From IMG/VR virus record IMGVR_UViG_3300037483_000378, positions 1 through 64,000 of that record: 64,000 bases of DNA; one strand, given 5' to 3'. This DNA is from a virus (taxonomy: Duplodnaviria; Caudoviricetes). The notes under the pieces were generated by a model. That model was not told where the DNA came from. It made no database searches and worked only from the letters and a program-made list of their open reading frames with translations. Positions 622-24,412 of the stretch are shown here, in pieces. The position numbers were made by a program, and so were the translations under genes. The stretch's first letter is position 1, and every line of letters begins with the position of its first letter.

Positions 622-1818
622 TCAGTCCTTGTACGGGTCTACGGTGTTGCCCGGGGCCATGCAGACGATCACTGGACGCAGGGTGTGCTGGACGGTGACG
701 GTCGGACCCTGGGCCGCGAGGACGTCGGGCAGACGGCGGTACGCCTGGGGTGCTTCGTCCAGATCAGCGCCGCGCAACACAACATCTCGCTCTGTGATCC
801 AGCCCTTCATGTCGGCGTGACTCACGGCACCCGGCTTGACCAACTGGCCCTTGCGCCACTTCCCCTTCGCCGCGGTGCGGGACATGACGCGTCCGGCACC
901 GTGGACGGTGGAGTACAGTGCCTGCTTCTGCAGCCATGCCTCGGCCGACCCATCGGGATGGTCGGCTCCGACCAGGATCACAGCGTCGTCGCCCATGGAC
1001 CCGCCGACAAAGCCTCGCTGGCCGGGCCGGGCCGGTGTCGCTCCTTTCCTTACCACCACATAGTTCCGCCCCTCGTGGTGCTCCCTCCACGCGAAGTTGT
1101 GGTGATTGTGGACAAGATCGACCTCAAAACCACCGAGGATCTCCACGACCCTACGCGCCACCCACTCCCTCCCCGCGTAGGCGTACTCTCCGGCCAGCGT
1201 CATCGCGGCCCAGTAGTCGTGCCCGATGGGGTGCTCCAAGTGCAGGAGCGCCTCCGCCTCTGGGACCTTCGTGCCCCATGGTTCTCCCTGGGCATAGGCG
1301 AGGAAGTTGGAAGCCAAGGTGTGCCCGAGCCCACGGCTCCCGAAGTGGACGCCTACCCACACCCGGTCCTGCTCGTCAGCGAACACGTCCACGTAGTGGT
1401 TGCCTGCGCCGATGGTGCCGAGCTGGTGACGAGCCCTCTCGCGGAGCTGGTGTCGGTAGCGTTCGGGTACCACGTCCCACACCGGCGACTCGAACAGCGG
1501 GTGACCCGTCGGAGCTCGATCCGCGAGATTGGCGAGGCCCACGCCGAAGGACAGGTGGGCGAAGATGTCGTCCGCCAACTCCTCCCTGCGATAGGCGATG
1601 GCGGAATAGGGCAGGTCGGTCAGGATGGCCGCGTTGCCACAAGCGATGTCGAAACCGACCCCCACAACGCTGACGCGATTCGAGAAGGCTGCCACTCCGC
1701 CGATGGGCATGACGTACCCCAGGTGCCCGTCTGCCATGAGGGCGAACCGATCCGCCCTCGATGCCACGTCCTTCGCTTGAGCGATGGTGCCCTCGTCATG
1801 CTCTCCGAATACCTTCAG
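622..1818 (-). CDS. rtcB: RtcB family RNA 3'-phosphate/5'-OH ligase
   Basis: Motifs DGHLGYVMPIGG, GFDIACG, GTIGAGNHY, VHFGSRGLG, HNHHN, RKGAT, GSMG, HGAGR, DEAPQAYR; probable CTG start at 1818 behind GGGAGG, overlapping the upstream TGA. Confidence 0.95.
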   Translation of the reverse strand: MKVFGEHDEGTIAQAKDVASRADRFALMADGHLGYVMPIGGVAAFSNRVSVVGVGFDIACGNAAILTDLPYSAIAYRREELADDIFAHLSFGVGLANLADRAPTGHPLFESPVWDVVPERYRHQLRERARHQLGTIGAGNHYVDVFADEQDRVWVGVHFGSRGLGHTLASNFLAYAQGEPWGTKVPEAEALLHLEHPIGHDYWAAMTLAGEYAYAGREWVARRVVEILGGFEVDLVHNHHNFAWREHHEGRNYVVVRKGATPARPGQRGFVGGSMGDDAVILVGADHPDGSAEAWLQKQALYSTVHGAGRVMSRTAAKGKWRKGQLVKPGAVSHADMKGWITERDVVLRGADLDEAPQAYRRLPDVLAAQGPTVTVQHTLRPVIVCMAPGNTVDPYKD

Positions 1819-2669
1819 GGCTCTGACCTCCCTAGCCGCGCCAGCATGCGCCGCGCGATCTCTTTGGTCTCCTCCGGGAAGTCCTTCGATATCATCCACT
1901 TCAGGTAGCCGGGCTGCGTCGCCACCGGCTTGTCCGCCTGCTGGCCGAACGCGAACACGATCTTGCCATTCTCGCGCCGCTTGAACTTGCCGGCCCTGTC
2001 CAGCATTTCCGGCGGCGCCGTGATGCGCAGCAGCTCTCCCACCGGCGGCCAGCCGGGTGCCACGCGCATGCTTTGCCCTTCTTCGACCACTTCGGCCAGG
2101 GGAAAGAAGTCCGCGAGCATCCCGTTCATAACGTCGCGCAGCACGCTCGCATCCTTGCTCGCACGGTGCGCGCCCTCGCCCAGCTCGGCGACGTCTGCGA
2201 ACCGTTGGACCGCCGACGCCAGGTCGCGTCGCTCCCTTTCCACCCACACCCGGTACAGGTCGATGTCGCGCGGCAGGATCTCGCCCCACTCGCCACGCGG
2301 CAGCCCCGAACGTCCTGCACGCCGAAGCTCGGCATCGAGGAACGGCACGTCGAAGCGCAGCGAGTTGAAACCCACGAGCACCGCGCCCTCGATCATCGTC
2401 TCTACCTGCTTGGCCACGTCCGCGAACGTCGGTGAGTCTGCCACGTCGGAGTCCGTGATGCCGTGCGTCTCCGTCGCCTCTGCCGGAATCGGAACGCAGG
2501 GGTTGACCAACCCCGTCAACTCGCCGCCGTCGCCGCCGAAGAACGCCAACTCAACGATACGGTCCGTTTCCGGGTCGAGCCCGGTCGTCTCCAGGTCGAA
2601 GTATACCAGGGTCGCAGTCAGCTCTTGCGTGAACCGAAGCTCGCCCCTGAAGTACGTCTGATAGCTCAC
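1815..2669 (-). CDS. DEDDh 3'-5' exonuclease (DNA Pol III epsilon/ExoX-like)
   Basis: YFDLETTGL, GFNSLRFD, HRASKD motifs; C-terminal FGQ..V...PGYLKW tail; GTG start behind AAGGAGG. Confidence 0.9.
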   Translation of the reverse strand: MSYQTYFRGELRFTQELTATLVYFDLETTGLDPETDRIVELAFFGGDGGELTGLVNPCVPIPAEATETHGITDSDVADSPTFADVAKQVETMIEGAVLVGFNSLRFDVPFLDAELRRAGRSGLPRGEWGEILPRDIDLYRVWVERERRDLASAVQRFADVAELGEGAHRASKDASVLRDVMNGMLADFFPLAEVVEEGQSMRVAPGWPPVGELLRITAPPEMLDRAGKFKRRENGKIVFAFGQQADKPVATQPGYLKWMISKDFPEETKEIARRMLARLGRSEP

Positions 2670-15046: not shown

Positions 15047-16072
15047 CTAATTCCCCCCGGTGATAAGGTTGCCGAGGTCGCCCGTCGCGAGACGGACGAA
15101 CTCAACGGTCTGCGTGATGGCGGCATCCTTCCGCGCAGCGTCGCGGACGAGCAGGGCGGCGAACTCCCCGGCCCCTCCGTCCGTGAGCCGCTCTGCGTAG
15201 CGAGCGACGCGGCCGAAATTCCGCTCAGTGCTCCGCATCGCGAGCGCTGTGACGACGGCATACCGCGTCGCGGGCTGCTCTGGGATCGGCGCGGCGTCCG
15301 GGTCCATCAAAATGGCGTCGATGCTCGGCAGATCCCGGTAGAGCCGGAGGAACGCGCCGAACTCCACGGCCGCCGCTTCGCCCACGGCGCCGACGATGGC
15401 CTGGTGCTGGAGGGCCATCGGTAGCCCGAGCGCCAGGAGCTTCCCGGCGTGCGCCCACGTGCGGGGCACCGGGCTGTTCGTCAGGTCCGCCGTTGCCTGG
15501 AACGCGCAGAGCAGGTCGGGCCGGAACCGCAGGAAGGCGATCAGCTCGGCGGGCACGTCGTTGGCGAACGCCCACCGGCACCAGTCGTCGAGGTCGGCTT
15601 CAAGTTCGACGATCGCCGCGAACCGGCTCTTCACCGGCTCCAGAATACCGCTCACCCCGGCGCGGTCCGTGCGTCGGTTCGTCGCGGCGATGAACGTCAC
15701 GCAGCCAGGCAGCAGGTGGCCGTTGACGCGCCGCGCCAAGAGCAGCTGCATGAAGCTCGCCTGTACGGACGGGGGCGCTTGCCCCAGGTCGTCCAGAAAC
15801 CACACCGTCGGCTTCGTGGCGCGAATCGCCTGCGCCAGCTCGCCGAACGGCAGGAACGTTGCGCTGTCCCCGTCCTTCGCGATCCACGGGAGCCCCTTGG
15901 CGTCCGTCGGGTCGGCGACGGCCGGGTGCGAGATGATGACGTCGGCCCCGGCGTCCTTGGCCGCCTGAGCGACGATGTCCGACTTGCCAACTCCCGGTGC
16001 CCCGGTGACGAGCACTGGCAGGCGGGCCGCGATCATGCGACCAAGGATGGTCGCGAGGTCTGATGGCTTCAT
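15047..16072 (-). CDS. MoxR/dynein-related AAA+ ATPase
   Basis: Walker A GAPGVGKS, Walker B WFLDD, AATNR, KSRF, PVPRTW. Confidence 0.9.
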   Translation of the reverse strand: MKPSDLATILGRMIAARLPVLVTGAPGVGKSDIVAQAAKDAGADVIISHPAVADPTDAKGLPWIAKDGDSATFLPFGELAQAIRATKPTVWFLDDLGQAPPSVQASFMQLLLARRVNGHLLPGCVTFIAATNRRTDRAGVSGILEPVKSRFAAIVELEADLDDWCRWAFANDVPAELIAFLRFRPDLLCAFQATADLTNSPVPRTWAHAGKLLALGLPMALQHQAIVGAVGEAAAVEFGAFLRLYRDLPSIDAILMDPDAAPIPEQPATRYAVVTALAMRSTERNFGRVARYAERLTDGGAGEFAALLVRDAARKDAAITQTVEFVRLATGDLGNLITGGN

Positions 16073-16088
16073 GAGTGGTCGTTCTCCG

Positions 16089-16547
16089 TCAGATGAGGTC
16101 CGTGAGGTCGTTGGCGATGATCACGTTCATCATCACGCTCTCGATCTCAAATTCCAGGTCGTCGATCATCACCTCGTCGACCCCGAGAAGGTCGGCCGCA
16201 TCGTTTAGGGCGAGGATCAGGTCATCCCGCTTCTGCCTGAGGCCGCGAACGGCACGCAGCTTCTTGCTCATATCAACCATCTGCTCGGGCGTGTACCGCC
16301 GGAGCGTGGTCGGATTGACGAACGTGCGCACGGTCGACGAGACGTCGGTGTCGTGAACCCCACTCGGCGTCACGGCGACTTCGACGATCACCTCGCCAGT
16401 CGCGCCGTCAAAGATACGAGCGGTGGTGTCGGCGGCGTCGGCGTTGCGGATGACTAACAGCGCCTCTTCCAGGGTCAGGCCGACGTGCGTGCTGACGTCG
16501 TTGATGGACACCTCGTGGTTCGGCGTGCTGGGCGAGTACGAGTCCAT
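16089..16547 (-). CDS. Acidic hypothetical protein
   Basis: RBS AAAGGAG; acidic helical C-terminus. Confidence 0.65.
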   Translation of the reverse strand: MDSYSPSTPNHEVSINDVSTHVGLTLEEALLVIRNADAADTTARIFDGATGEVIVEVAVTPSGVHDTDVSSTVRTFVNPTTLRRYTPEQMVDMSKKLRAVRGLRQKRDDLILALNDAADLLGVDEVMIDDLEFEIESVMMNVIIANDLTDLI

Positions 16548-16623
16548 GGTGATGCTCCTTTGGTTTTGCGCCGCTCATCGGCGGCAGTGAAGTAGTCAGC
16601 CGATCCCGTTCCTACGCTGCGCG

Positions 16624-16653
16624 TCAGCCAGCGCGCGTCGTCGTCGTGCTCAT
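16624..16653 (-). CDS. Possible 9-aa leader peptide MSTTTTRAG
   Basis: RBS GAGAGGAAA; four consecutive ACG codons. Confidence 0.3.
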   Translation of the reverse strand: MSTTTTRAG

Positions 16654-16757
16654 GGTGTTTCCTCTCCGCTTCGGGAGTCGTGATCGCCGGGGCCGCCCCC
16701 CGGTAGGGCCGTACCTGCTAAGGAGCGGCAGGGGGTCGAACCCTGCCGCCCGATGAA

Positions 16758-17090
16758 CTACGCGGACGCGAGCCTGCCGCCGCGCTCGCTGAACGCTACC
16801 CACTCCGGCCCCTTCGCGTGCGACCGCTTCCGATCGTACGTGCCGAAGTGCGCGCCCCACGTCCCGCCGTCGCGGCGGGTCAGCCAGAGGCACCGCCCTT
16901 CGATCGGCCAGTGGTAGGAGTTCGGCACCCAGCCGTCGAGGTAGATCGTCACTCTCACGATGCGCTGGTCCTTGGCGATGGCGGCCCAAAGCCCAACGCT
17001 GGCCACCGGCTCCACTGCCTCCGCTTCTCCGATGATGAGCAGTCGCGCCGTCACCGTTGCCGTTGCCTGCCTCTGCGTTGTCGCGTTCAT
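16758..17090 (-). CDS. Hypothetical protein (first gene of early operon)
   Basis: RBS GAGGAG; start MNATTQ. Confidence 0.65.
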   Translation of the reverse strand: MNATTQRQATATVTARLLIIGEAEAVEPVASVGLWAAIAKDQRIVRVTIYLDGWVPNSYHWPIEGRCLWLTRRDGGTWGAHFGTYDRKRSHAKGPEWVAFSERGGRLASA

Positions 17091-17167
17091 CGTCTGCTCC
17101 TCGTTGTGCCGCTCATTGGCGGCGTTGAACCAAAAAGGACGCGCGCGGGTGCACGCGTATAAAGGTA

Positions 17168-17243
17168 TGCGGGCTGGAGGGAGTCGAACCCTCATGCCGG
17201 GAACCGCCCTGGGCTCCCTGGCCGCCTCCGCAGGCCAGCCCGC
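17168..17243 (-). ncRNA. tRNA-like element (8-bp acceptor, 5-bp T stem, 6-nt central loop)
   Basis: GCGGGCUG/CAGCCCGC+A; T arm GAGGG-UUCGACU-CCCUC; CCUG/CAGG arm; GAGCC-CAGGGC-GGUUC arm. Confidence 0.6.
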
Positions 17244-17891
17244 TGAAATCTCTCCCTCTGTTCGCCCGCTGCCGCTGTCGGTCCGGTCCGTGTGGTGCGC
17301 CGTTTTCCCCCTCGCCGCCTCCGTTGCGCTTGTGTGGCTCATTGGCCGCGCGGGCTGTCGCGATTCGTGTGGTGGGGATAGGTCGCCGGGTCCGGCTGTC
17401 GCCGTGGCGTGCGGGCTCCGTCGGGAGTCCCGTGTACCTCTACCGTGCCGCCTCCGCTTCTGCTGCGCCGAACTCCGAAGGCTCATCACCTTCGGCTACT
17501 CGGCGCCTGACGCTTCCTCGCGTGGGGCTCTTCGGTGCCACCGTGTCACGCTGTCGCCGCTTCTTTTGGGGCGCGGCCTCGAAGGCTCTCGAATCCGCCC
17601 GGGGCGTTTGCGTCGGTGGTCTTGTCGTGAGGTTCGCTGCGTACGCAGCGCCGAGTCTCCTGCCCTCGGTCTTGGCCGGTGCCAGCCTATTGGGTCCCGT
17701 CCGACCCTCACCGCCCTGTTTCGCTCGGGCGGCCAGCGGCGGGGTTCCTCTCGTCCGGCATCCCTGGCCGGGGGTCCCGCTTCCTGCCTACAATAATAAT
17801 GGGGGCGCCCCCCAATAGCTAGCCCCATAATCACATTGCGCCGCAACGACTTACGGTCATCGGCCTTTCGCGGAAGTGCCGCATAGGCACG

Positions 17892-17928
17892 AAAAGGTGG
17901 CCACGGCCCCCTATAGTAGTAGGCCACC
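17892..17928 (-). terminator. Probable intrinsic terminator of the tRNA operon
   Basis: GGUGGCC...GGCCACC stem followed by UUUU just after the last tRNA. Confidence 0.55.
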
Positions 17929-17960
17929 GCCCCGGACGGGCCTGGACCACCTGGTCACCA

Positions 17961-18034
17961 TCGGGGCGGCCGGACTCGAACCGGCGACCCTCTGCTCCCA
18001 AAGCAGATGCGCTGCCCAACTGCGCCACGCCCCG
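17961..18034 (-). tRNA. tRNA-Pro(TGG)
   Basis: Manual cloverleaf; loop TT TGG GA. Confidence 0.92.
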
Positions 18035-18042
18035 TCTTTCCA

Positions 18043-18124
18043 TGCGAGCGGGGGGACTCGAACCCCCATGGCCATCGGCCACGAGCTTCTAAGGCTCGCG
18101 CGTCTGCCGTTTCGCCACGCTCGC
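18043..18124 (-). tRNA. tRNA-Leu(TAG)
   Basis: Cloverleaf with variable arm; loop CT TAG AA. Confidence 0.92.
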
Positions 18125-18130
18125 GCGCTC

Positions 18131-18150
18131 ACTCGGGTTTCGTGGTAAGG
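18131..18150. repeat. 20-bp inverted repeat, copy 1 (partner 21954-21973)
   Basis: ACTCGGGTTTCGTGGTAAGG is the exact reverse complement of 21954-21973. Confidence 0.95.
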
Positions 18151-18156
18151 GGAAGA

Positions 18157-18230
18157 TGCCCTCGGCCGGACTCGAACCGGCTGCCTCGCGCTTAGGGGGC
18201 GCGCGCTCTGTCCGGTTGAGCTACGAAGGC
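18157..18230 (-). tRNA. tRNA-Arg(CCT), C33 variant
   Basis: Loop CC CCT AA; overlaps the HNH stop codon. Confidence 0.88.
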
Positions 18231-18823
18231 GTCGGGTCGAACAGCTCCTCGACCGCAGCGCGCGCCTCATCGCCGAGCCGCCCAAGGAATACCTCGGCAC
18301 GCGTCATCGCCCGCGGCTTCCGGCGCAGGTACATCCGTGCCTCAGCCGGCGTGCGGTTGTCCTTCCGCGCGTTGCACGTCGAGCAGGCGGTCACGGTGTT
18401 CTCGTACACGTTGCGCCCGCCGCGTGACTCCGGCGTCACGTGGTCGATGGTGAGGAACTCGCCCGCCGCCGTGAGCCGAATCGTCTCCGTGCCGTAGCGC
18501 ACCATGACGTCACGCCGTCCGTGCCCGCGCGCAAGATCGCTCTCGTGCCGCCCGCAGTACATGCAGCGGTGCCCGTCCCGTAGGTAGACGTTCCCGCGCG
18601 TCCAGGACGCGCGACCGAACACCACCCCTGCGAAGTCAGCGAGCGCCTCAAGCACGATCACGACTGGGGCCGGGACGCGCACGCGGCCGTCCGCATTCCG
18701 GAACACGCGGGTCGGGTGATCCCTCAACGACTGCGCCTTGCCCTCCAAGAGCAGGAGCACCGCGCGGTTGACCGGGATCTCGTCGATCGGCGCGAAGCTC
18801 GGGGCCAATACCAGGGTCTTCAT
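18221..18823 (-). CDS. HNH endonuclease
   Basis: RDGHRCMYCG, TIDHVTP.SRGG, N.VTACSTCNARK. Confidence 0.93.
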   Translation of the reverse strand: MKTLVLAPSFAPIDEIPVNRAVLLLLEGKAQSLRDHPTRVFRNADGRVRVPAPVVIVLEALADFAGVVFGRASWTRGNVYLRDGHRCMYCGRHESDLARGHGRRDVMVRYGTETIRLTAAGEFLTIDHVTPESRGGRNVYENTVTACSTCNARKDNRTPAEARMYLRRKPRAMTRAEVFLGRLGDEARAAVEELFDPTPS

Positions 18824-18887
18824 CTTCGTCTCATCGTGCGATCAGTTGAAGGGTGGAACAGCAGCGCGCACCGTGCGCGCAGGGAAA

Positions 18888-18974
18888 CGGAGCGGGTGGG
18901 ATTCGAACCCACGGGGCGCGAACGCCCTCCGGTTTTCAAGACCGGTGCGATAGGCCGGGCTCTGCCACCGTTCC
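18888..18974 (-). tRNA. tRNA-Ser(TGA)
   Basis: Variable arm; loop CT TGA AA. Confidence 0.9.
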
Positions 18975-18976
18975 AG

Positions 18977-19047
18977 AGATGCCGCCCGGAGTCGAACCGG
19001 GCCTGACGGGTTTGCAGTCCGTCGCCTCGCCGCTCGGCATCGGCACC
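18977..19047 (-). tRNA. tRNA-Cys(GCA)
   Basis: Loop CT GCA AA; U73. Confidence 0.88.
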
Positions 19048-19054
19048 ACGAACA

Positions 19055-19127
19055 AGCGCGCGACGGGTTTCGAACCCGTGGCCTCGAGCTTGGGAAGCTC
19101 GCGCTCTACCGACTGAGCTACGCGCGC
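19055..19127 (-). tRNA. tRNA-Gly(CCC)
   Basis: Loop TT CCC AA; U73. Confidence 0.92.
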
Positions 19128-19131
19128 GAAG

Positions 19132-19212
19132 TGCGTCCGGCAGGACTCGAACCTGCAAGCCAGAAGGCACTCGCTTTTGAGGCGAGCGCGTAGACCATTC
19201 CGCCACGGACGC
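19132..19212 (-). tRNA. tRNA-Leu(CAA)
   Basis: Loop CT CAA AA; variable arm. Confidence 0.92.
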
Positions 19213-19218
19213 AAGAAG

Positions 19219-19303
19219 TGCTGGCGGGGAGACTCGAACTCCCACGGGCCGAAGCCCCGAGCGTTTTTAGGACGCCCACGTCTGCCGGTTCCGCCACGCC
19301 AGC
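19219..19303 (-). tRNA. tRNA-Leu(TAA), C33 variant
   Basis: Loop CC TAA AA; variable arm. Confidence 0.88.
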
Positions 19304-19310
19304 GAAGAAA

Positions 19311-19394
19311 CGGATGGAGCGGGATTCGAACCCGCGCGGGGTCACCCCCAACGCCTTAGCAGGGCGTCGCCTTCAGCCACTCGGCCACCCATCC
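19311..19394 (-). tRNA. tRNA-Ser(GCT)
   Basis: Loop CT GCT AA; variable arm. Confidence 0.92.
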
Positions 19395-19398
19395 AAAG

Positions 19399-19483
19399 TG
19401 CTCGCGCCCGGATTCGAACCGGGATGCCGTCGCCGGCACGGCGCCCTGAACGCCGCGCGTCTGCCAAGTTTCGCCACGCGAGC
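19399..19483 (-). tRNA. tRNA-Leu(CAG)
   Basis: Loop TT CAG GG; variable arm. Confidence 0.92.
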
Positions 19484-19485
19484 AA

Positions 19486-19568
19486 TGCGCACGGAGGGAT
19501 TCGAACCCTCACGCCTCAATGGCACGGCCCCCTCAAGACCGCGTGTCTACCAGCTCCACCACGTGCGC
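19486..19568 (-). tRNA. tRNA-Leu(GAG)
   Basis: Loop TT GAG GG; variable arm. Confidence 0.9.
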
Positions 19569-19578
19569 GCATACCCTA

Positions 19579-19652
19579 CGGCCCCGCCCGGACTCGAACC
19601 GGGAACGACGCGGTTCCAAAGACCGCCGCCTCTGCCATTCGGCCACGGGGCT
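19579..19652 (-). tRNA. tRNA-Gln(TTG)
   Basis: Loop CT TTG GA; A1:C72 mismatch. Confidence 0.85.
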
Positions 19653-19666
19653 CCTACTCTGCGAAG

Positions 19667-19741
19667 TCTGGGGGGTGGGATTCGAACCCACGACCTCCGC
19701 GTCCCGAACGCGGCGCGCTGGCCGGACTGCGCTACTCCCAG
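19667..19741 (-). tRNA. tRNA-Pro(CGG)
   Basis: Loop TT CGG GA. Confidence 0.92.
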
Positions 19742-19748
19742 ATGATGA

Positions 19749-19822
19749 TGGGCCCGCCGGGACTCGAACCCGGGACCGTCGCCTTATGAGGGCGCCGCTC
19801 TACCGGACTGAGCTACGGGCCC
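19749..19822 (-). tRNA. tRNA(CAT), probably Ile2 (lysidine type), otherwise elongator Met
   Basis: GGGCCCG acceptor; loop CT CAT AA. Confidence 0.85.
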
Positions 19823-19827
19823 GAAAA

Positions 19828-19902
19828 TGCCCAGGGAGGGAATCGAACCCCCGGCCTCCTGCTTGTAAGACAGGCGCTCTCCGCTTGCTGAGCTACCCGG
19901 GC
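19828..19902 (-). tRNA. tRNA-Val(TAC)
   Basis: Loop CT TAC AA. Confidence 0.92.
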
Positions 19903-19924
19903 GGTGCTGTCGTGATGAAACCAG

Positions 19925-19999
19925 ACCGAGGAACGGGATTCGAACCCGCGGCCTTCGCCATGGCAAGGCGACGCTCTGGCCGGACTGAGCTATCCTCGG
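19925..19999 (-). tRNA. tRNA-Gly(GCC)
   Basis: Loop TT GCC AT; U73; atypical C1-G72. Confidence 0.85.
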
Positions 20000-20005
20000 A
20001 AGTGA

Positions 20006-20116
20006 GCGTGTTGGGGAACATGCGGCAACGGAGAGCCGGTTGCCCGGCGAGTCCAGGCGATGCCTGGTTGCTTTCGTTATGAGCGAAGTAACCGTCACCT
20101 TTCGCCACCGACACGC
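20006..20116 (-). ncRNA. Non-tRNA structured RNA displaying a CAU anticodon stem-loop
   Basis: Closing stem GCGUGUCGG/CCAACACGC; UUCG-CUCAUAA-CGAA; no T arm. Confidence 0.5.
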
Positions 20117-20117
20117 A

Positions 20118-20191
20118 TAGCGGGAGAGGGATTTGAACCCTCGACCTTCAGCTTATGAGGCTGACGAGCTACCAGGCTGCTCTATCCCGCT
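20118..20191 (-). tRNA. tRNA-Met(CAT), initiator-like body
   Basis: fMet-type D arm GAGCAGCCTGGTAGCTC; loop CT CAT AA; A1-U72; anticodon stem TCAGC. Confidence 0.88.
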
Positions 20192-20197
20192 GATAAA

Positions 20198-20283
20198 TGG
20201 ACCCGGCTGGATTTGAACCAGCGTGCACCACATGGCCTCCCGTTTATCAGACGGGCGCTCTGACCGGACTGAGCTACGGGTCC
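20198..20283 (-). tRNA. tRNA-Ile(GAT) with long variable arm
   Basis: Loop CT GAT AA; 16-nt variable region AGGCCATGTGGTGCAC. Confidence 0.88.
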
Positions 20284-20289
20284 AACTGA

Positions 20290-20675
20290 TGGAGGCGGCG
20301 GGAGTCGAACCCGCGTCCGTTCACGCTTCCAAGTCGTGACTTCTAGTGCGATTGTCGCGTTTCGAGTTTCTCACCCAAACTAACGTCCTCGGATGAGGCG
20401 GGGCTCTCGCGGTGCGCCAGACCTACTACCCCTCCGAAGGGTGAGCCCCCTTCAGGTGGCCTCGTCTTTCCGAGTGCCCATCTGGCTGATCGACGTTCTC
20501 TAAGCGACACCAGAATGATCACGAAGAGAACGGGAGACTTACGCTGCCTTGCGGAGCGGCTCCGAGTTGAGATCGCTGTTCGCGTTTCTCGGTTGTCCTA
20601 GCGCGTTAGCGACTGAGCTAGGATCGTCGCGCACATCACTTCCTTTCCACGAAACGTCGAAACCTTTACGCCCCC
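20290..20675 (-). ncRNA. ssrA: tmRNA; tag (A)ANSDLNSEPLRKAA
   Basis: 5' GGGGGCGTAAAGGTTTCGAC; 3' GACGCGGGTTCGACTCCCGCCGCCTCCA with G3:U pair; tag ORF 20583-20539. Confidence 0.93.
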
Positions 20676-20700
20676 GTTTTTCATTCCCCCCCCCCAACCA

Positions 20701-20772
20701 TGGAGCTGGCGGGGATCGAACCCGCGGCGTCCGCCATGCGAAGACGGCGCTCTCCCTCTGAGCTACAGCCCC
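20701..20772 (-). tRNA. tRNA-Ala(CGC)
   Basis: G3:U70; loop TT CGC AT. Confidence 0.9.
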
Positions 20773-20775
20773 TCA

Positions 20776-20849
20776 AGCCAACGCCCGGCATCGAACCGGG
20801 GACCTTCCGCTTACAAGGCGGGTGCTCTGCCTAGCTGAGCTACGTTGGC
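20776..20849 (-). tRNA. tRNA-Thr(TGT)
   Basis: Loop CT TGT AA. Confidence 0.9.
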
Positions 20850-20856
20850 GCGTTCT

Positions 20857-20929
20857 GCGCGGAACCGGCGACTGTCCCCTCTTCGGTGTCTTTCGACCGT
20901 CCGGTACGGAATGTCCATCCGGTCCGCGC
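20857..20929 (-). ncRNA. Unknown ~73-nt structured RNA inside the tRNA array
   Basis: Closing stem GCGCGGACCGG/CCGGUUCCGCGC; internal GUC-GAAA-GAC. Confidence 0.4.
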
Positions 20930-20934
20930 GTATA

Positions 20935-21021
20935 CGGAGCGGGAAGGATTCGAACCTTCGTGCCCACGTGGGGCTCTCGCTTTCGGGGCGAGCGCGTTTG
21001 GCCTGGCTCCGCCACCGCTCC
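20935..21021 (-). tRNA. tRNA-Ser(CGA), C33 variant
   Basis: Loop CC CGA AA; variable arm; G73. Confidence 0.88.
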
Positions 21022-21028
21022 ATCGAAG

Positions 21029-21101
21029 TTGCCCCACCAGGATTCGAACCTGGAACCTCCGCGTCCAGAGCGCGGCGCGCTGCCAGTTGTGCTATGGGGC
21101 A
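21029..21101 (-). tRNA. tRNA-Gln(CTG)
   Basis: U1-A72; loop CT CTG GA. Confidence 0.9.
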
Positions 21102-21111
21102 ATGTGAAGAA

Positions 21112-21188
21112 GGGTGACCGACGGGATTTGAACCCGCGATCTCCGGGGCCACGGCCCGGCGCTTTCGGCCGACTAAGCTACGATCACC
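21112..21188 (-). tRNA. tRNA-His(GTG), C33 variant
   Basis: G-1:C73; loop CC GTG GC. Confidence 0.88.
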
Positions 21189-21195
21189 ATTGAAG

Positions 21196-21270
21196 TGCGC
21201 CCGGAGGGATTCGAACCCCCGACCTCCTGATCCGTAGTCAGGCGCTCCGTCCAGACTGAGCTACGGGCGC
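21196..21270 (-). tRNA. tRNA-Arg(ACG)
   Basis: Loop CT ACG GA. Confidence 0.93.
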
Positions 21271-21287
21271 AAGGTAGGCACGAGACG

Positions 21288-21360
21288 CGGTCTGACGGAG
21301 CCCCGCCACGGGAGTCGAACCCTGCCGCGCCCCGTGCCATCACGGCCGCCCATGAGACCG
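21288..21360 (-). ncRNA. Degenerate tRNA-like element
   Basis: GGG-UUCGACU-CCC T loop; closing CGGUCU/AGACCG; CCGUG-AUGG-CACGG arm. Confidence 0.35.
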
Positions 21361-21370
21361 ACCGTGTAAA

Positions 21371-21443
21371 AGCTGCGAGCGGGAGTTGAACCCACGACCT
21401 CCTGCTTACGGGGCGGCGCTCTCCCGTGCTGAGCTATCGGAGC
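21371..21443 (-). tRNA. tRNA-Thr(CGT), degenerate/C33 variant
   Basis: Loop CC CGT AA; irregular anticodon stem (CCGC/GCAGG); C:C mismatch in acceptor. Confidence 0.65.
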
Positions 21444-21446
21444 AAG

Positions 21447-21520
21447 TCTGGACGGCGGGACTCGAACCCGCGACCCCTGGTCCCCCAGACCAGTGCGCTA
21501 CCGGGCTGCGCCACGTCCAG
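21447..21520 (-). tRNA. tRNA-Pro(GGG)
   Basis: Loop CT GGG GG. Confidence 0.92.
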
Positions 21521-21525
21521 AAGAG

Positions 21526-21598
21526 TACCCCGAGCGCGACTCGAACGCGCGACCTTCTGCTTCGGAGGCAGACGCTCTGTCCGCTGAGCTATCGGGGC
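21526..21598 (-). tRNA. tRNA-Arg(CCG)
   Basis: Loop CT CCG AA. Confidence 0.92.
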
Positions 21599-21605
21599 GA
21601 AAAAA

Positions 21606-21679
21606 CGGGACCGGAAGGAATCGAACCCTCGACCTCTCGTTCTGGAGACGAGCGCTCTACCAGCGTGAGCTACGGACCC
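21606..21679 (-). tRNA. tRNA-Trp(CCA)
   Basis: Loop CT CCA GA; G73. Confidence 0.9.
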
Positions 21680-21683
21680 GAAG

Positions 21684-21758
21684 TGTGCGCGGACGGAGTT
21701 GAACCGCCGACAACCTGGCTCTTCACGCCAGTGCTCTACCACGCTGAGCTACGCGCAC
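21684..21758 (-). tRNA. tRNA-Phe(GAA)
   Basis: Loop GT GAA GA (atypical G32, G37). Confidence 0.87.
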
Positions 21759-21761
21759 GCA

Positions 21762-21833
21762 TACCCCCACGGGGAATCGAACCCCGGTCGCCACCTTGAA
21801 AGAGTGGTGTCCTGGCCGCTAGACGATGAGGGC
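21762..21833 (-). tRNA. tRNA-Glu(TTC)
   Basis: Loop CT TTC AA. Confidence 0.92.
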
Positions 21834-21840
21834 AAAGGCA

Positions 21841-21913
21841 TACCTCCGGGCGGAATTGAACCGCCGTTCCCGCCGTGAGAGGGCAGCGTCCTGGGCCACT
21901 AGACGACGGAGGC
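21841..21913 (-). tRNA. tRNA-Glu(CTC)
   Basis: Loop CT CTC AC. Confidence 0.92.
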
Positions 21914-21920
21914 ATTGCTG

Positions 21921-21952
21921 GGCATGCCGAGGTGTTCCGGCCTCGGCATGCC
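21921..21952. repeat. Perfect 12-bp hairpin just 5' of the first tRNA
   Basis: GGCATGCCGAGG-N8-CCTCGGCATGCC. Confidence 0.8.
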
Positions 21953-21953
21953 A

Positions 21954-21973
21954 CCTTACCACGAAACCCGAGT
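21954..21973. repeat. 20-bp inverted repeat, copy 2 (partner 18131-18150)
   Basis: CCTTACCACGAAACCCGAGT. Confidence 0.95.
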
Positions 21974-22111
21974 TGTCGATCAGCGCACCCACCTAAGCCA
22001 AGCGCCCCGCCTCCCGTTGCTCGTGGGGGGCGGGGCGCTGGCCCTTCCGCGCTTCCGAGGGTTCGCGCCCGTTACGGCACTCGCCCCCCCCCCGCCATCC
22101 CGGTATTCGGC

Positions 22112-22297
22112 TCATCTGCTTCCGGCTCCATGACGAGACCGGACCAGGGCAGTCGCCCGTGCGACCGTCGCTGGCATGGGCCGAAGACCACGATGACGCG
22201 ACTCGCCGCCGCTCGCCCTGTCGGGCTTGCGGTCCTGCGTGAGCCGGTATGCGTGGCCGTCGCGAGCATCGAGGGCTCTCTCCGTGATGGTGGTCAT
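22112..22297 (-). CDS. Possible 61-aa ORF at the head of the tRNA transcript
   Basis: ATG just downstream of the promoter motif with a GAGG RBS; no recognisable domain. Confidence 0.3.
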   Translation of the reverse strand: MTTITERALDARDGHAYRLTQDRKPDRASGGESRHRGLRPMPATVARATALVRSRHGAGSR

Positions 22298-22314
22298 GCC
22301 TCTGCGTGGGGAGC

Positions 22315-22341
22315 ATAACCCCCCGACGGCCCGGCGTAAAG
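22315..22341 (-). promoter_or_regulatory. Putative phage-sigma promoter CTTTACG-N13-GGGTTAT for the tRNA operon
   Basis: Same motif and spacing as 53444-53470. Confidence 0.7.
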
Positions 22342-22446
22342 TACCGCCACGGCCCCGCCGTCAGGCTTGGGGGCACGATGGGGGCGTCGGGATAGGCTTA
22401 TGCGTGGCCCCCTAACGCCGCACCCCTTTAGGGGGCAGCCCACGCC

Positions 22447-22791
22447 TCACTCGTATCCGGGCTCGACGATGACGGTGAGCCAGCTGCGACCTGGATGCCG
22501 AGTCGTGTCCCCGTCATTCCACGTGGCCAGCACGTAGCACTGATACGTGCCGGGCGCGTCGAACGCGTTACCTCCACCCAGCTTGGCATCCACGGGATCG
22601 AAGACGAGCCCCAGGGTCACGGACGGCGACGGAGTGAGGGCACCAGCAGTGACGTGATTCGCGCTCTCGCCAGCCAACCGCGCGTACAGCACCGCACTCG
22701 TCAGATCATCCAAATTCGCGAGCCCGGTTGCCGAGATCGTGAGTACCAACGGTTCTGTGTCGGCGGGCTTGAGTCGAATCGTGTCAGGCAT
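22447..22791 (-). CDS. BppU-like Ig-fold virion protein
   Basis: IRLKPADT.PL....FD.PGTYQCYV.ATW.DG pattern. Confidence 0.65.
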   Translation of the reverse strand: MPDTIRLKPADTEPLVLTISATGLANLDDLTSAVLYARLAGESANHVTAGALTPSPSVTLGLVFDPVDAKLGGGNAFDAPGTYQCYVLATWNDGDTTRHPGRSWLTVIVEPGYE

Positions 22792-22798
22792 GATTGGT

Positions 22799-23014
22799 CT
22801 AGCTCCATGTCGCTGATCTAGCTGGGTCTATGATGGATGCGGTTCTGAGGGGATCCGTTAGGCTCGCGGCACGGCGCGGATCTACCCAGTCCGCGAGGTA
22901 TGGCGGGAGAATCGATATCACTTCCTGAGCCGCAGCCCACGATGTGTCCGTCCACGTGGCAGCGGCCCATGTACCAGTGGCCCAACACGACCCTGCGGAA
23001 CCAGGGAACGGCAT
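22799..23014 (-). CDS. Small hypothetical protein with TW and DP.R.AS repeats
   Basis: Fills the gap between structural genes. Confidence 0.45.
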   Translation of the reverse strand: MPFPGSAGSCWATGTWAAATWTDTSWAAAQEVISILPPYLADWVDPRRAASLTDPLRTASIIDPARSATWS

Positions 23015-23017
23015 GGC

Positions 23018-24412
23018 TTACGCCGGCCCCCACTCGTTGCCATCGACCCCGGTGCCTGTTAGGCCCGTGCCGTTCACGCTTTGCACGTTGGCGTCCACTT
23101 CGCCAGCCTTCGTGAAAGTCAAGCTGTCGGTCTTCGCCTTGATCGCGTCCACCACGGTGTCCACGGTCGCCAGGTTCGCCGCCGTGGCGAGCGCCGCGTC
23201 CGTGATGGCGGTGTCCACCTCGGCATTGACTTCGGCTGCCGTCAGGTCGTTGAGCGCGCTCACCTCGCTCGACAGCGCGTGGGCCTGTACCTCCTCCCCG
23301 AAGCTGCCGGCCGCGACATGGCCCGCCTTGGCCTCATCCCACACCCCGTCCGAGACCTGCGCCACGGTGGGCACGGCCGCCGTCACGTCGGCGCTGGACA
23401 GGTCGTTGAGGGCCGCGACGCCACCCTGCGTGGTCGCGTGCTGCGCGTCCTGTGCGGTGTCGAGCGCGTCCAGCGTGGTGATCGTGCCGGCGACTCCGCC
23501 GACGGTGCCCGTGACGCTCCCCACCGCGCCGGTCACTGAGCCCACCGCGCCGGTCACGCTCCCGACCGACCCCGACAGGTCGCCCGTGATGTTCGCCGTC
23601 TGGTTGCCGAGGCCGGTCGTGGCCGTGAGGCTGTAGCCGGTCTTCGACCCTGCGGCCACCACGACGCCAGCGGTCCCGGTGTCATCGAGGATCGCGGCCG
23701 TATCGACCTTGACCGCCGCCACGTCCGCGGAGACCGACGCGCCGGCCGGTGCACCGAGCCGAGCGAACACGTCGCCCGTCAGGTAGTCCACCAGCCGCTT
23801 CCCGATGGAGCCGACCGTGGTGAGCGCGGAGGACAGCGCGTCCCACACCGCCTGCACCCCTGCGGCCGACAGCGCGTATCCCGTCTTGCTCGCCGCCGCC
23901 ACCACGACGCCGTCCGTACCGGTGTCGAGGAGGATGGCGTCTACGACCCCGTCCACGGTGGCCAGAGCCGTCGCGGTGGCGATGTCCTGGGCCGCACCAC
24001 CGACCAGCGTGACGTCTATCTCCGGCACCCCAGCGACGGTCGGGGTCGCCGCGGCGGTCCCGAGCCACTGCGTCACGCTCACGTCGAGCACGTCCGAGCC
24101 GGCGACAATCGAATCGTACACGTTGGCGGGCAGAACCAGGAACTCGTGCCAGACCGGGAGATGCGTGGCGGCGTCATGCACCTTCAGCACGAGACTTCCG
24201 AGCGTGTTGGTGTGCGTCGTGGTGAGGGTGACGGGATACCATCCATCGGAGTCGTAGGTCCCGAGCACTGGCCCGGCGCCGTAGGCTCCGCCGGCCTTGC
24301 TGATCTCGGTCCCGGCACCCGCGAGTCCGGCCTCCTCGGTGACGCCGTCCGTCTTGTCGAGGCACGGCCCGATGCGCTCCGTTACTTCCGTCGACTGCTT
24401 GAGGAGTCTCAT
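23018..24412 (-). CDS. Ala/Thr/Gly-rich virion fibre-like protein
   Basis: VGSVTGA repeats; duplicated DTGT.GVVVAA.SKTGY segment. Confidence 0.75.
   Translation of the reverse strand: MRLLKQSTEVTERIGPCLDKTDGVTEEAGLAGAGTEISKAGGAYGAGPVLGTYDSDGWYPVTLTTTHTNTLGSLVLKVHDAATHLPVWHEFLVLPANVYDSIVAGSDVLDVSVTQWLGTAAATPTVAGVPEIDVTLVGGAAQDIATATALATVDGVVDAILLDTGTDGVVVAAASKTGYALSAAGVQAVWDALSSALTTVGSIGKRLVDYLTGDVFARLGAPAGASVSADVAAVKVDTAAILDDTGTAGVVVAAGSKTGYSLTATTGLGNQTANITGDLSGSVGSVTGAVGSVTGAVGSVTGTVGGVAGTITTLDALDTAQDAQHATTQGGVAALNDLSSADVTAAVPTVAQVSDGVWDEAKAGHVAAGSFGEEVQAHALSSEVSALNDLTAAEVNAEVDTAITDAALATAANLATVDTVVDAIKAKTDSLTFTKAGEVDANVQSVNGTGLTGTGVDGNEWGPA

Follow-up and report, generated by a model that had tools for sequence, protein, structure and literature searches.

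In the ribosomal RNA (rRNA) operons of bacteria (rrn), complementary segments lying kilobases apart enclose the mature 16S or 23S RNA of one precursor in a loop, closed by an RNase III stem of ~20 bp or more, which undergoes compensatory change as its sequence drifts and is flanked by structured elements. A similar arrangement surrounds an array of transfer RNA (tRNA) genes in the phage record IMGVR_UViG_3300037483_000378 from IMG/VR, of which we analysed positions 1–64,000 (hereafter the window): a perfect 20-nt inverted repeat brackets the array, and in a transcript its two copies would pair and close the array into a loop. The phage locus differs from the rrn stems in its cargo, which is 29–38 tRNAs with or without a transfer-messenger RNA (tmRNA) plus a protein-coding HNH endonuclease gene, and no rRNA; in its loop of 3.8–6.3 kb, which is longer than either rRNA loop; in leaving the last two tRNAs outside; and in that we infer cleavage of the helix.

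Three further systems share parts of this arrangement. At the RNase III sites of the T7 early and late mRNAs, the lambda N leader and sib, a host nuclease cuts a polycistronic transcript and hairpins stabilise the new ends, as we propose here; those sites are however local stem-loops of tens of nucleotides, whereas the strands around the phage array are 3.8–6.3 kb apart. Archaeal circular pre-rRNA likewise has a long-range helix around stable RNAs, and the phage genome also encodes an RtcB ligase, but the phage helix has no bulge-helix-bulge, no bacterial or phage splicing endonuclease is known here, and RNase III ends are incompatible with RtcB. Lastly, the tRNA region of phage T5 resembles this one in its free-standing HNH gene amongst phage tRNA genes, and further nuclease genes are inserted at this spot in relatives of the present phage (for example a PD-(D/E)XK gene in lineage L007). 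T5-type HNH–tRNA associations are not known to have flanking inverted repeats, and unlike the ends of such HNH elements the repeat described here behaves as an RNA element. A full-text literature search found no paper describing such a stem around a phage tRNA array.

We conclude, with a probability of roughly 0.55, that the two copies form a selected long-range RNA helix in the precursor of the tRNA array, most likely a processing stem of the RNase III type. Large tRNA arrays are common in big phages, yet little work has addressed what sets the limits of their long untranslated transcripts and how these mature. If our reading is correct, few of the RNA pairings so far proposed in phage transcripts would span as far as this one (3.8–6.3 kb), and phages would reuse the logic of rRNA operons for a stable-RNA operon of their own. 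Further tRNA arrays of phages and plasmids could be screened for complementarity between flanking segments.

The inverted repeat and its counterparts in relatives

The first-pass annotation had described one copy as the exact reverse complement of the other and placed 29 tRNAs, a tmRNA and the HNH gene between them. Both statements hold. The arms (Table 1) are complementary at 20 of 20 positions with 3803 nt in between, and ARAGORN and Rfam recover 29 tRNAs and one tmRNA between them, all on the minus strand, together with a 200 amino acid HNH open-reading frame (18221–18823; Pfam HNH, E 5e-12); no other credible open-reading frame lies between the arms. Allowing up to three mismatches, the two arm sites are the sole matches in the 64-kb window, where shuffled sequences averaged 0.01 matches and two matches arose in none of 100 shuffles, and they are also the only ones in the whole 80.5-kb record. 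Complementarity stops sharply at all four ends (next bases C/T, G/T and C/T outward, G/A inward), and the spacer separating tRNA-Arg(CCT) from tRNA-Leu(TAG), 32 nt long, is largely taken up by the 3′ arm.

A repeat of 20 nt equals k − 1 for k = 21 and might therefore be an assembly artefact. Two findings rule this out: the arms are spanned by independent contigs, and in relatives the corresponding places bear imperfect helices. Logan contigs from three samples span the 18131–18150 arm without any difference, and a contig from the likely source sample spans the 21954–21973 arm, all in the reference orientation. Many "skip" joints of contigs, with short sides (19–27 nt) at tRNA-like sequence in metagenomes, were read as cross-matches from other organisms.

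Relatives were scarce in some searches. A megablast search with the region among 50,697 phage records returned short tRNA matches only; in IMG/VR the exact 20-mer had no other match, the HNH protein alone found no relative, and the AAA ATPase led only to distant loci that have no tRNAs; a scan of GTDB genomes yielded HNH proteins at ≤40% identity only. Metagenomic homologues of the neighbouring MoxR-type AAA ATPase numbered in the thousands, and close ones of the HNH protein a dozen. Five lineages with a common order of tRNAs were thereby compared: the window and the loci L007, L010, L029 and L043 (L010 has the near-copies L011 and L028, with L027 a 5′-only variant; L043 has the near-copy L030, with L044 of the same gene layout). 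In the four other lineages the HNH protein is 70–76% identical to that of the window and alignable array DNA ~75–77% identical; across lineages the arrays hold 29–38 tRNAs, and a tmRNA is present or not.

Each of the five lineages has, just past a TTGACA-like hexamer, a segment complementary to the tRNA-Arg(CCT)–tRNA-Leu(TAG) spacer, with a sequence specific to that lineage. The two sites are fixed, one just before the first tRNA (Glu-CTC) and the other in that spacer, whilst the letters change; in L007, for example, CTCAGGTTCTGGGTGTGTG faces CACACACCCAGGACCTGAG, and in L010 GCTCAGGTCTTGAGGGAAGAAGGGG faces CCCCTTCTTCCCCAGGACCTTAGC. The helices measure 20–35 bp with predicted energies of −41 to −55 kcal/mol (RNAduplex), and close loops of 3.8 kb in the window and 4.7–6.3 kb in the relatives. 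When the 30-nt leader arm of each lineage was paired with sliding windows taken over the array and a further 1.5 kb (1058–1560 windows), the cognate spacer was the top partner every time, ~5–7 standard deviations below the mean of the other windows; in 18 of the 20 non-cognate combinations of leader and spacer the pairing was far weaker. An alignment of the five 5′ arms shows changes on both sides in 18 of ~24 helix columns, with nearly every cell paired, and one-base bulges are tolerated in the L010 and L043 helices. The arms are far more diverged than the tRNAs they enclose, yet still pair. Minimum-energy co-folds of all five lineages retain the helix even with the flanking tRNAs and the hairpins that compete with it included. 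Compensatory change in related phages, proposed beforehand as a check, is thus seen in four further lineages, which keep complementarity at the same sites with altered letters.

The same comparison bears on whether selection acts on RNA or DNA. In the four imperfect helices the sense strands pair more stably than the antisense strands (−40.7 against −35.2, −44.4 against −41.0, −55.1 against −46.0 and −54.4 against −43.2 kcal/mol; RNAduplex), and contain 2, 3, 6 and 2 G·U pairs where the antisense strands contain 0, 0, 2 and 0. When each 5′ arm was aligned as DNA, in a strand-neutral way, with the reverse-complemented 3′ arm of its lineage, eight transitions were of the kind that forms G·U in the sense strand and one of the kind that does so in the antisense; there were also some one-base gaps. 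The bias of G·U pairs and stability towards the sense strand, the bulges, and divergence with pairing retained together make the transcript a likelier target than duplex DNA; such a pattern would not be expected of a transposon end, an invertase site or a protein operator. The proposal that the copies are the strands of a 20-bp RNA helix closing a ~3.8-kb loop thereby gains support, from covariation in four lineages and from G·U pairs that fit the sense strand.

As a separate observation, the distal 14 nt of the arm (GTTTCGTGGTAAGG; 18137–18150 and 21954–21967) match the 5′ part of the tmRNA (GTTTCGTGGAAAGG, 20642–20655) at 13 of 14 positions, so that the 3′ arm could also pair with the tmRNA. 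The likeness is probably a coincidence, since the arms of the relatives differ and those relatives lack a tmRNA.

A candidate processing stem

Read in the sense direction, the small gene at 22072–22269 is followed by the GC-rich hairpin, TGATCGACA, the 5′ arm, the local hairpin and tRNA-Glu(CTC), then by the rest of the array, the HNH gene, tRNA-Arg(CCT), the 3′ arm, tRNA-Leu(TAG), tRNA-Pro(TGG) and the terminator-like sites (Table 1). The arms lie on the same strand and canonical terminators occur only downstream of the array; the terminator scan found none between the upstream gene and the 5′ arm, nor between the two arms. We suggest that a minus-strand precursor extends from a point before the first tRNA across the entire array, which would place both arms in one transcript, where they would pair and close a loop holding the 29 tRNAs, the tmRNA and the HNH mRNA. 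A host enzyme of the RNase III type, specific for double strands, would then cut the helix, separating the array from the upstream late mRNA and also from a downstream unit of tRNA-Leu(TAG), tRNA-Pro(TGG) and a conserved non-coding region, and the GC-rich hairpin and local hairpin on either side of the 5′ arm may cap the new 3′ and 5′ ends. RNase III needs roughly 20 bp and all five helices have at least 20; it is this length, with the analogy to rrn, that leads us to propose cutting by host RNase III.

Table 1 Features of the tRNA-array locus (window positions; all on the minus strand).
Feature	Position	Strand	Sequence	Basis
3′ strand of helix	18131–18150	−	forward ACTCGGGTTTCGTGGTAAGG; sense RNA CCUUACCACGAAACCCGAGU	exact-repeat comparison, duplex folding
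5′ strand of helix	21954–21973	−	forward CCTTACCACGAAACCCGAGT; sense RNA ACUCGGGUUUCGUGGUAAGG	exact-repeat comparison, duplex folding
Enclosed loop: 29 tRNA genes, tmRNA (20287–20675), HNH gene	18157–21914	−		ARAGORN, Rfam, Pfam
tRNA-Leu(TAG) and tRNA-Pro(TGG), outside the helix yet on the same strand in 5/5 lineages	17961–18124	−		tRNA calls
GC-rich hairpin after the small gene (15-bp stem, 9-nt loop)	22001–22039	−		alignment, folding
Motif abutting the arm on its 5′ side, with −35-like hexamer	21974–21982	−	TGATCGACA; in relatives TGATTGACA or TTTTTGAAA	alignment
Local hairpin between 5′ arm and first tRNA (12-bp stem, 8-nt loop)	21921–21952	−		read from sequence, alignment, co-folds
First canonical terminator-like site downstream of the array (stem and T-run)	17800–17814	−		terminator scan
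Second terminator-like site downstream of the array, with T-run	17139–17158	−		terminator scan

The flanking elements recur in the relatives. The GC-rich hairpin is conserved in sequence across all array-bearing relatives and folds as a hairpin in five of five co-folds; it has no T-run and the terminator scan did not score it as an intrinsic terminator. Every relative also has a hairpin at the site of the local one, with a different sequence. The conserved hexamer, 20–30 nt past the GC-rich hairpin, reads TTGACA in four contigs, TCGACA in the window and TTGAAA in L029. A second copy of the hairpin word (2732–2744) lies in coding sequence and forms no hairpin, and TGATYGACA as a recurrent promoter word of the phage was ruled out, as it is not enriched in the genome.

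Several points weigh against a processing stem. The phage does not itself encode RNase III. A search for sequencing runs containing the region listed no RNA run. A conserved −35-like hexamer stands directly 5′ of the arm, after the GC-rich hairpin, and a promoter there would start transcripts within or past the 5′ arm, so that the helix could form only in read-through transcripts; the promoter reading is weakened by the absence of a −10-like hexamer at proper spacing, by the lack of any promoter call, and by the upstream hairpin having no T-run and no terminator score. The comparison covers only five lineages, and in the distal half of the helix it is uncertain which positions are homologous. 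RNAduplex favours sense pairing by design, and the strand-neutral count of eight against one is only modestly significant. The 20 of 20 match in the window, which contains no G·U pair, suits a DNA-level origin equally well. Finally, three distant phage arrays (L017, L022 and L023), which their loci cover incompletely, show no evident closing helix.

Alternative readings

The alternative which survives best keeps the helix and its selection, and removes RNase III from the account: pairing could serve as an end-to-end clamp that protects or insulates the precursor, set the order of tRNA maturation, or act as a switch with the local hairpin. The same covariation supports it, the phage's lack of an RNase III gene suits it, and in L029 alternative structures arise because the 3′ spacer is also able to pair with the local hairpin, at its 5′ half. 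We nonetheless consider it rather unlikely, as exposed double-stranded RNA of at least 20 bp is expected to be cut wherever the bacterium has RNase III, and no specific feature indicates a clamp or a switch.

A second alternative takes the 5′ copy as part of an array promoter (its spacer or −10 element) and the inverted copy as a further place on the DNA where the same protein binds; the two might, for instance, be paired operators that loop the array DNA. The hexamer abutting the arm, 20–30 nt after a GC-rich hairpin, does form a typical terminator–promoter layout. No lineage however has a properly spaced −10-like hexamer, and a promoter scan of 16000–24000 called no sigma-70-type promoter; the arms are not internally palindromic, and the inverted copy has no −35-like hexamer. 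A protein site would also leave unexplained the bulges and the sense-biased G·U differences between copies, and the arm sequence is almost wholly changed from one lineage to the next. We judge this reading improbable.

The first-pass annotation had also offered the repeats as DNA-level ends of a mobile or invertible HNH–tRNA cassette. They could then be terminal inverted repeats or sites of inversion or recombination. A perfect 20-bp repeat with sharp ends would suit this in the window, as would a homing-type HNH gene adjoining one arm, relatives without any array, and the RecT- and RecE-like recombination genes of the phage. The remaining evidence runs the other way, and we find this idea quite improbable. 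There is no transposase or site-specific recombinase inside and no invertase nearby, and the flanks (GCGCGCTC preceding an arm and TGTCGATC following an arm) form no target-site duplication. The arms diverge faster than their cargo, with bulges and sense-only G·U pairs, and the tRNAs inside and outside share one orientation in five of five lineages. Contigs span the arms in the reference orientation only and no joint changes strand among the joints listed, although contigs would miss a rare inversion. Array-less relatives (L008, L031, L032 and L033; AAA ATPase 68–76% identical, no tRNAs) also lack the two tRNAs that lie outside the repeat, so the boundary between presence and absence is not at the arms; having no tRNAs, these four loci are uninformative on the helix itself.

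Circularisation was the remaining suggestion. The phage does encode RtcB (PF01139, 218 bits, window 661–1752, minus strand); RtcB proteins are usually much shorter than the 642 amino acid open frame in which the match sits (661–2590, minus strand), pointing to a fused domain or an extended N terminus. RNase III leaves a 5′-phosphate and a 3′-OH, whilst RtcB joins a 3′-phosphate or 2′,3′-cyclic phosphate end to a 5′-OH end, and circular pre-rRNA in archaea depends on a splicing endonuclease together with a bulge-helix-bulge motif. In the window the helix runs for 20 bp without interruption, and the single-base bulges of the relatives fall at varying places and are not of the 3-4-3 form. One might still imagine rRNA-like capsules, in which the helix excises the whole array, a nuclease leaving cyclic phosphates makes the cuts, and RtcB seals a circle shielded from exonucleases; we regard these as very improbable. 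Least probable of all is RNase III-type cleavage followed by RtcB ligation into a circular multi-tRNA precursor on the archaeal model, as first suggested: although the RtcB gene is present and the helix would bring the array ends together, the ends made by RNase III are not RtcB substrates, the window helix lacks the archaeal bulges, and RtcB in tRNA-rich phages is ordinarily read as a tRNA repair enzyme.

Array content and neighbouring genes

The source record is an 80.5 kb virus contig from a sediment metagenome, with a G+C content of 66.6% and nearly all its genes on the minus strand. The phage is present at sediment and soil sites (runs X1–X3). Portal, head protease, tape measure, RecT-like and RecE-like genes were detected, which identify a tailed phage. 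Outside the 3′ arm there are three further minus-strand tRNA calls.

The arrays differ in content between lineages. Among the five, a tmRNA is credible only in the window's phage, where it is inserted between tRNA-Ala(CGC) and tRNA-Ile(GAT); an ARAGORN tmRNA call in L007 (1061–1448) overlaps six tRNA genes and was taken as spurious. The window's phage in turn lacks a block of nine tRNAs (Thr-GGT, Tyr, Asn, Gly-TCC, Asp, Arg-TCT, Lys-CTT, Lys-TTT and Ala-TGC) which the relatives have between Pro(GGG) and Thr(CGT), corresponding to the gap between 21371 and 21270.

At the other end of the array, the last codons and stop of the HNH open-reading frame overlap the first 10 nt of tRNA-Arg(CCT) (18221–18230), and the distance from the end of the HNH gene to the tRNA is no more than ~6 nt in L010 and L029. 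In L007 alone, a PD-(D/E)XK gene (PDDEXK_5; L007:4381–5007, minus strand of the locus) lies antisense between the HNH gene and tRNA-Arg(CCT); the called open-reading frame extends across both that tRNA and the 3′ arm, hence the gene probably starts further in than called. The spot between the HNH gene and tRNA-Arg(CCT) looks like a landing site for nuclease genes. The tRNA-array region as a whole is a variable cargo site: in L008, whose ATPase is 76% identical, a tyrosine-integrase-like gene (L008:7017–8174) occupies, on the opposite strand, the place where the window's phage has its tRNA array.

Downstream of the array, a stretch of ~350 nt without a credible open-reading frame (window 17440–17784, minus strand; L007:6980–7327; L043:7905–8289) shares 87% DNA identity with L007 and 80% with L043, which exceeds the conservation of the array, and has no match in Rfam. 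In the relatives it comes after a TROVE (Ro60-like) gene, which the window's phage lacks; this position makes a Y-RNA-like partner RNA a lead. With regard to the host, the HNH homologue of the L010 lineage (protein P0122) is filed in NCBI under a Phycisphaerae metagenome-assembled genome, a weak hint at a planctomycete.

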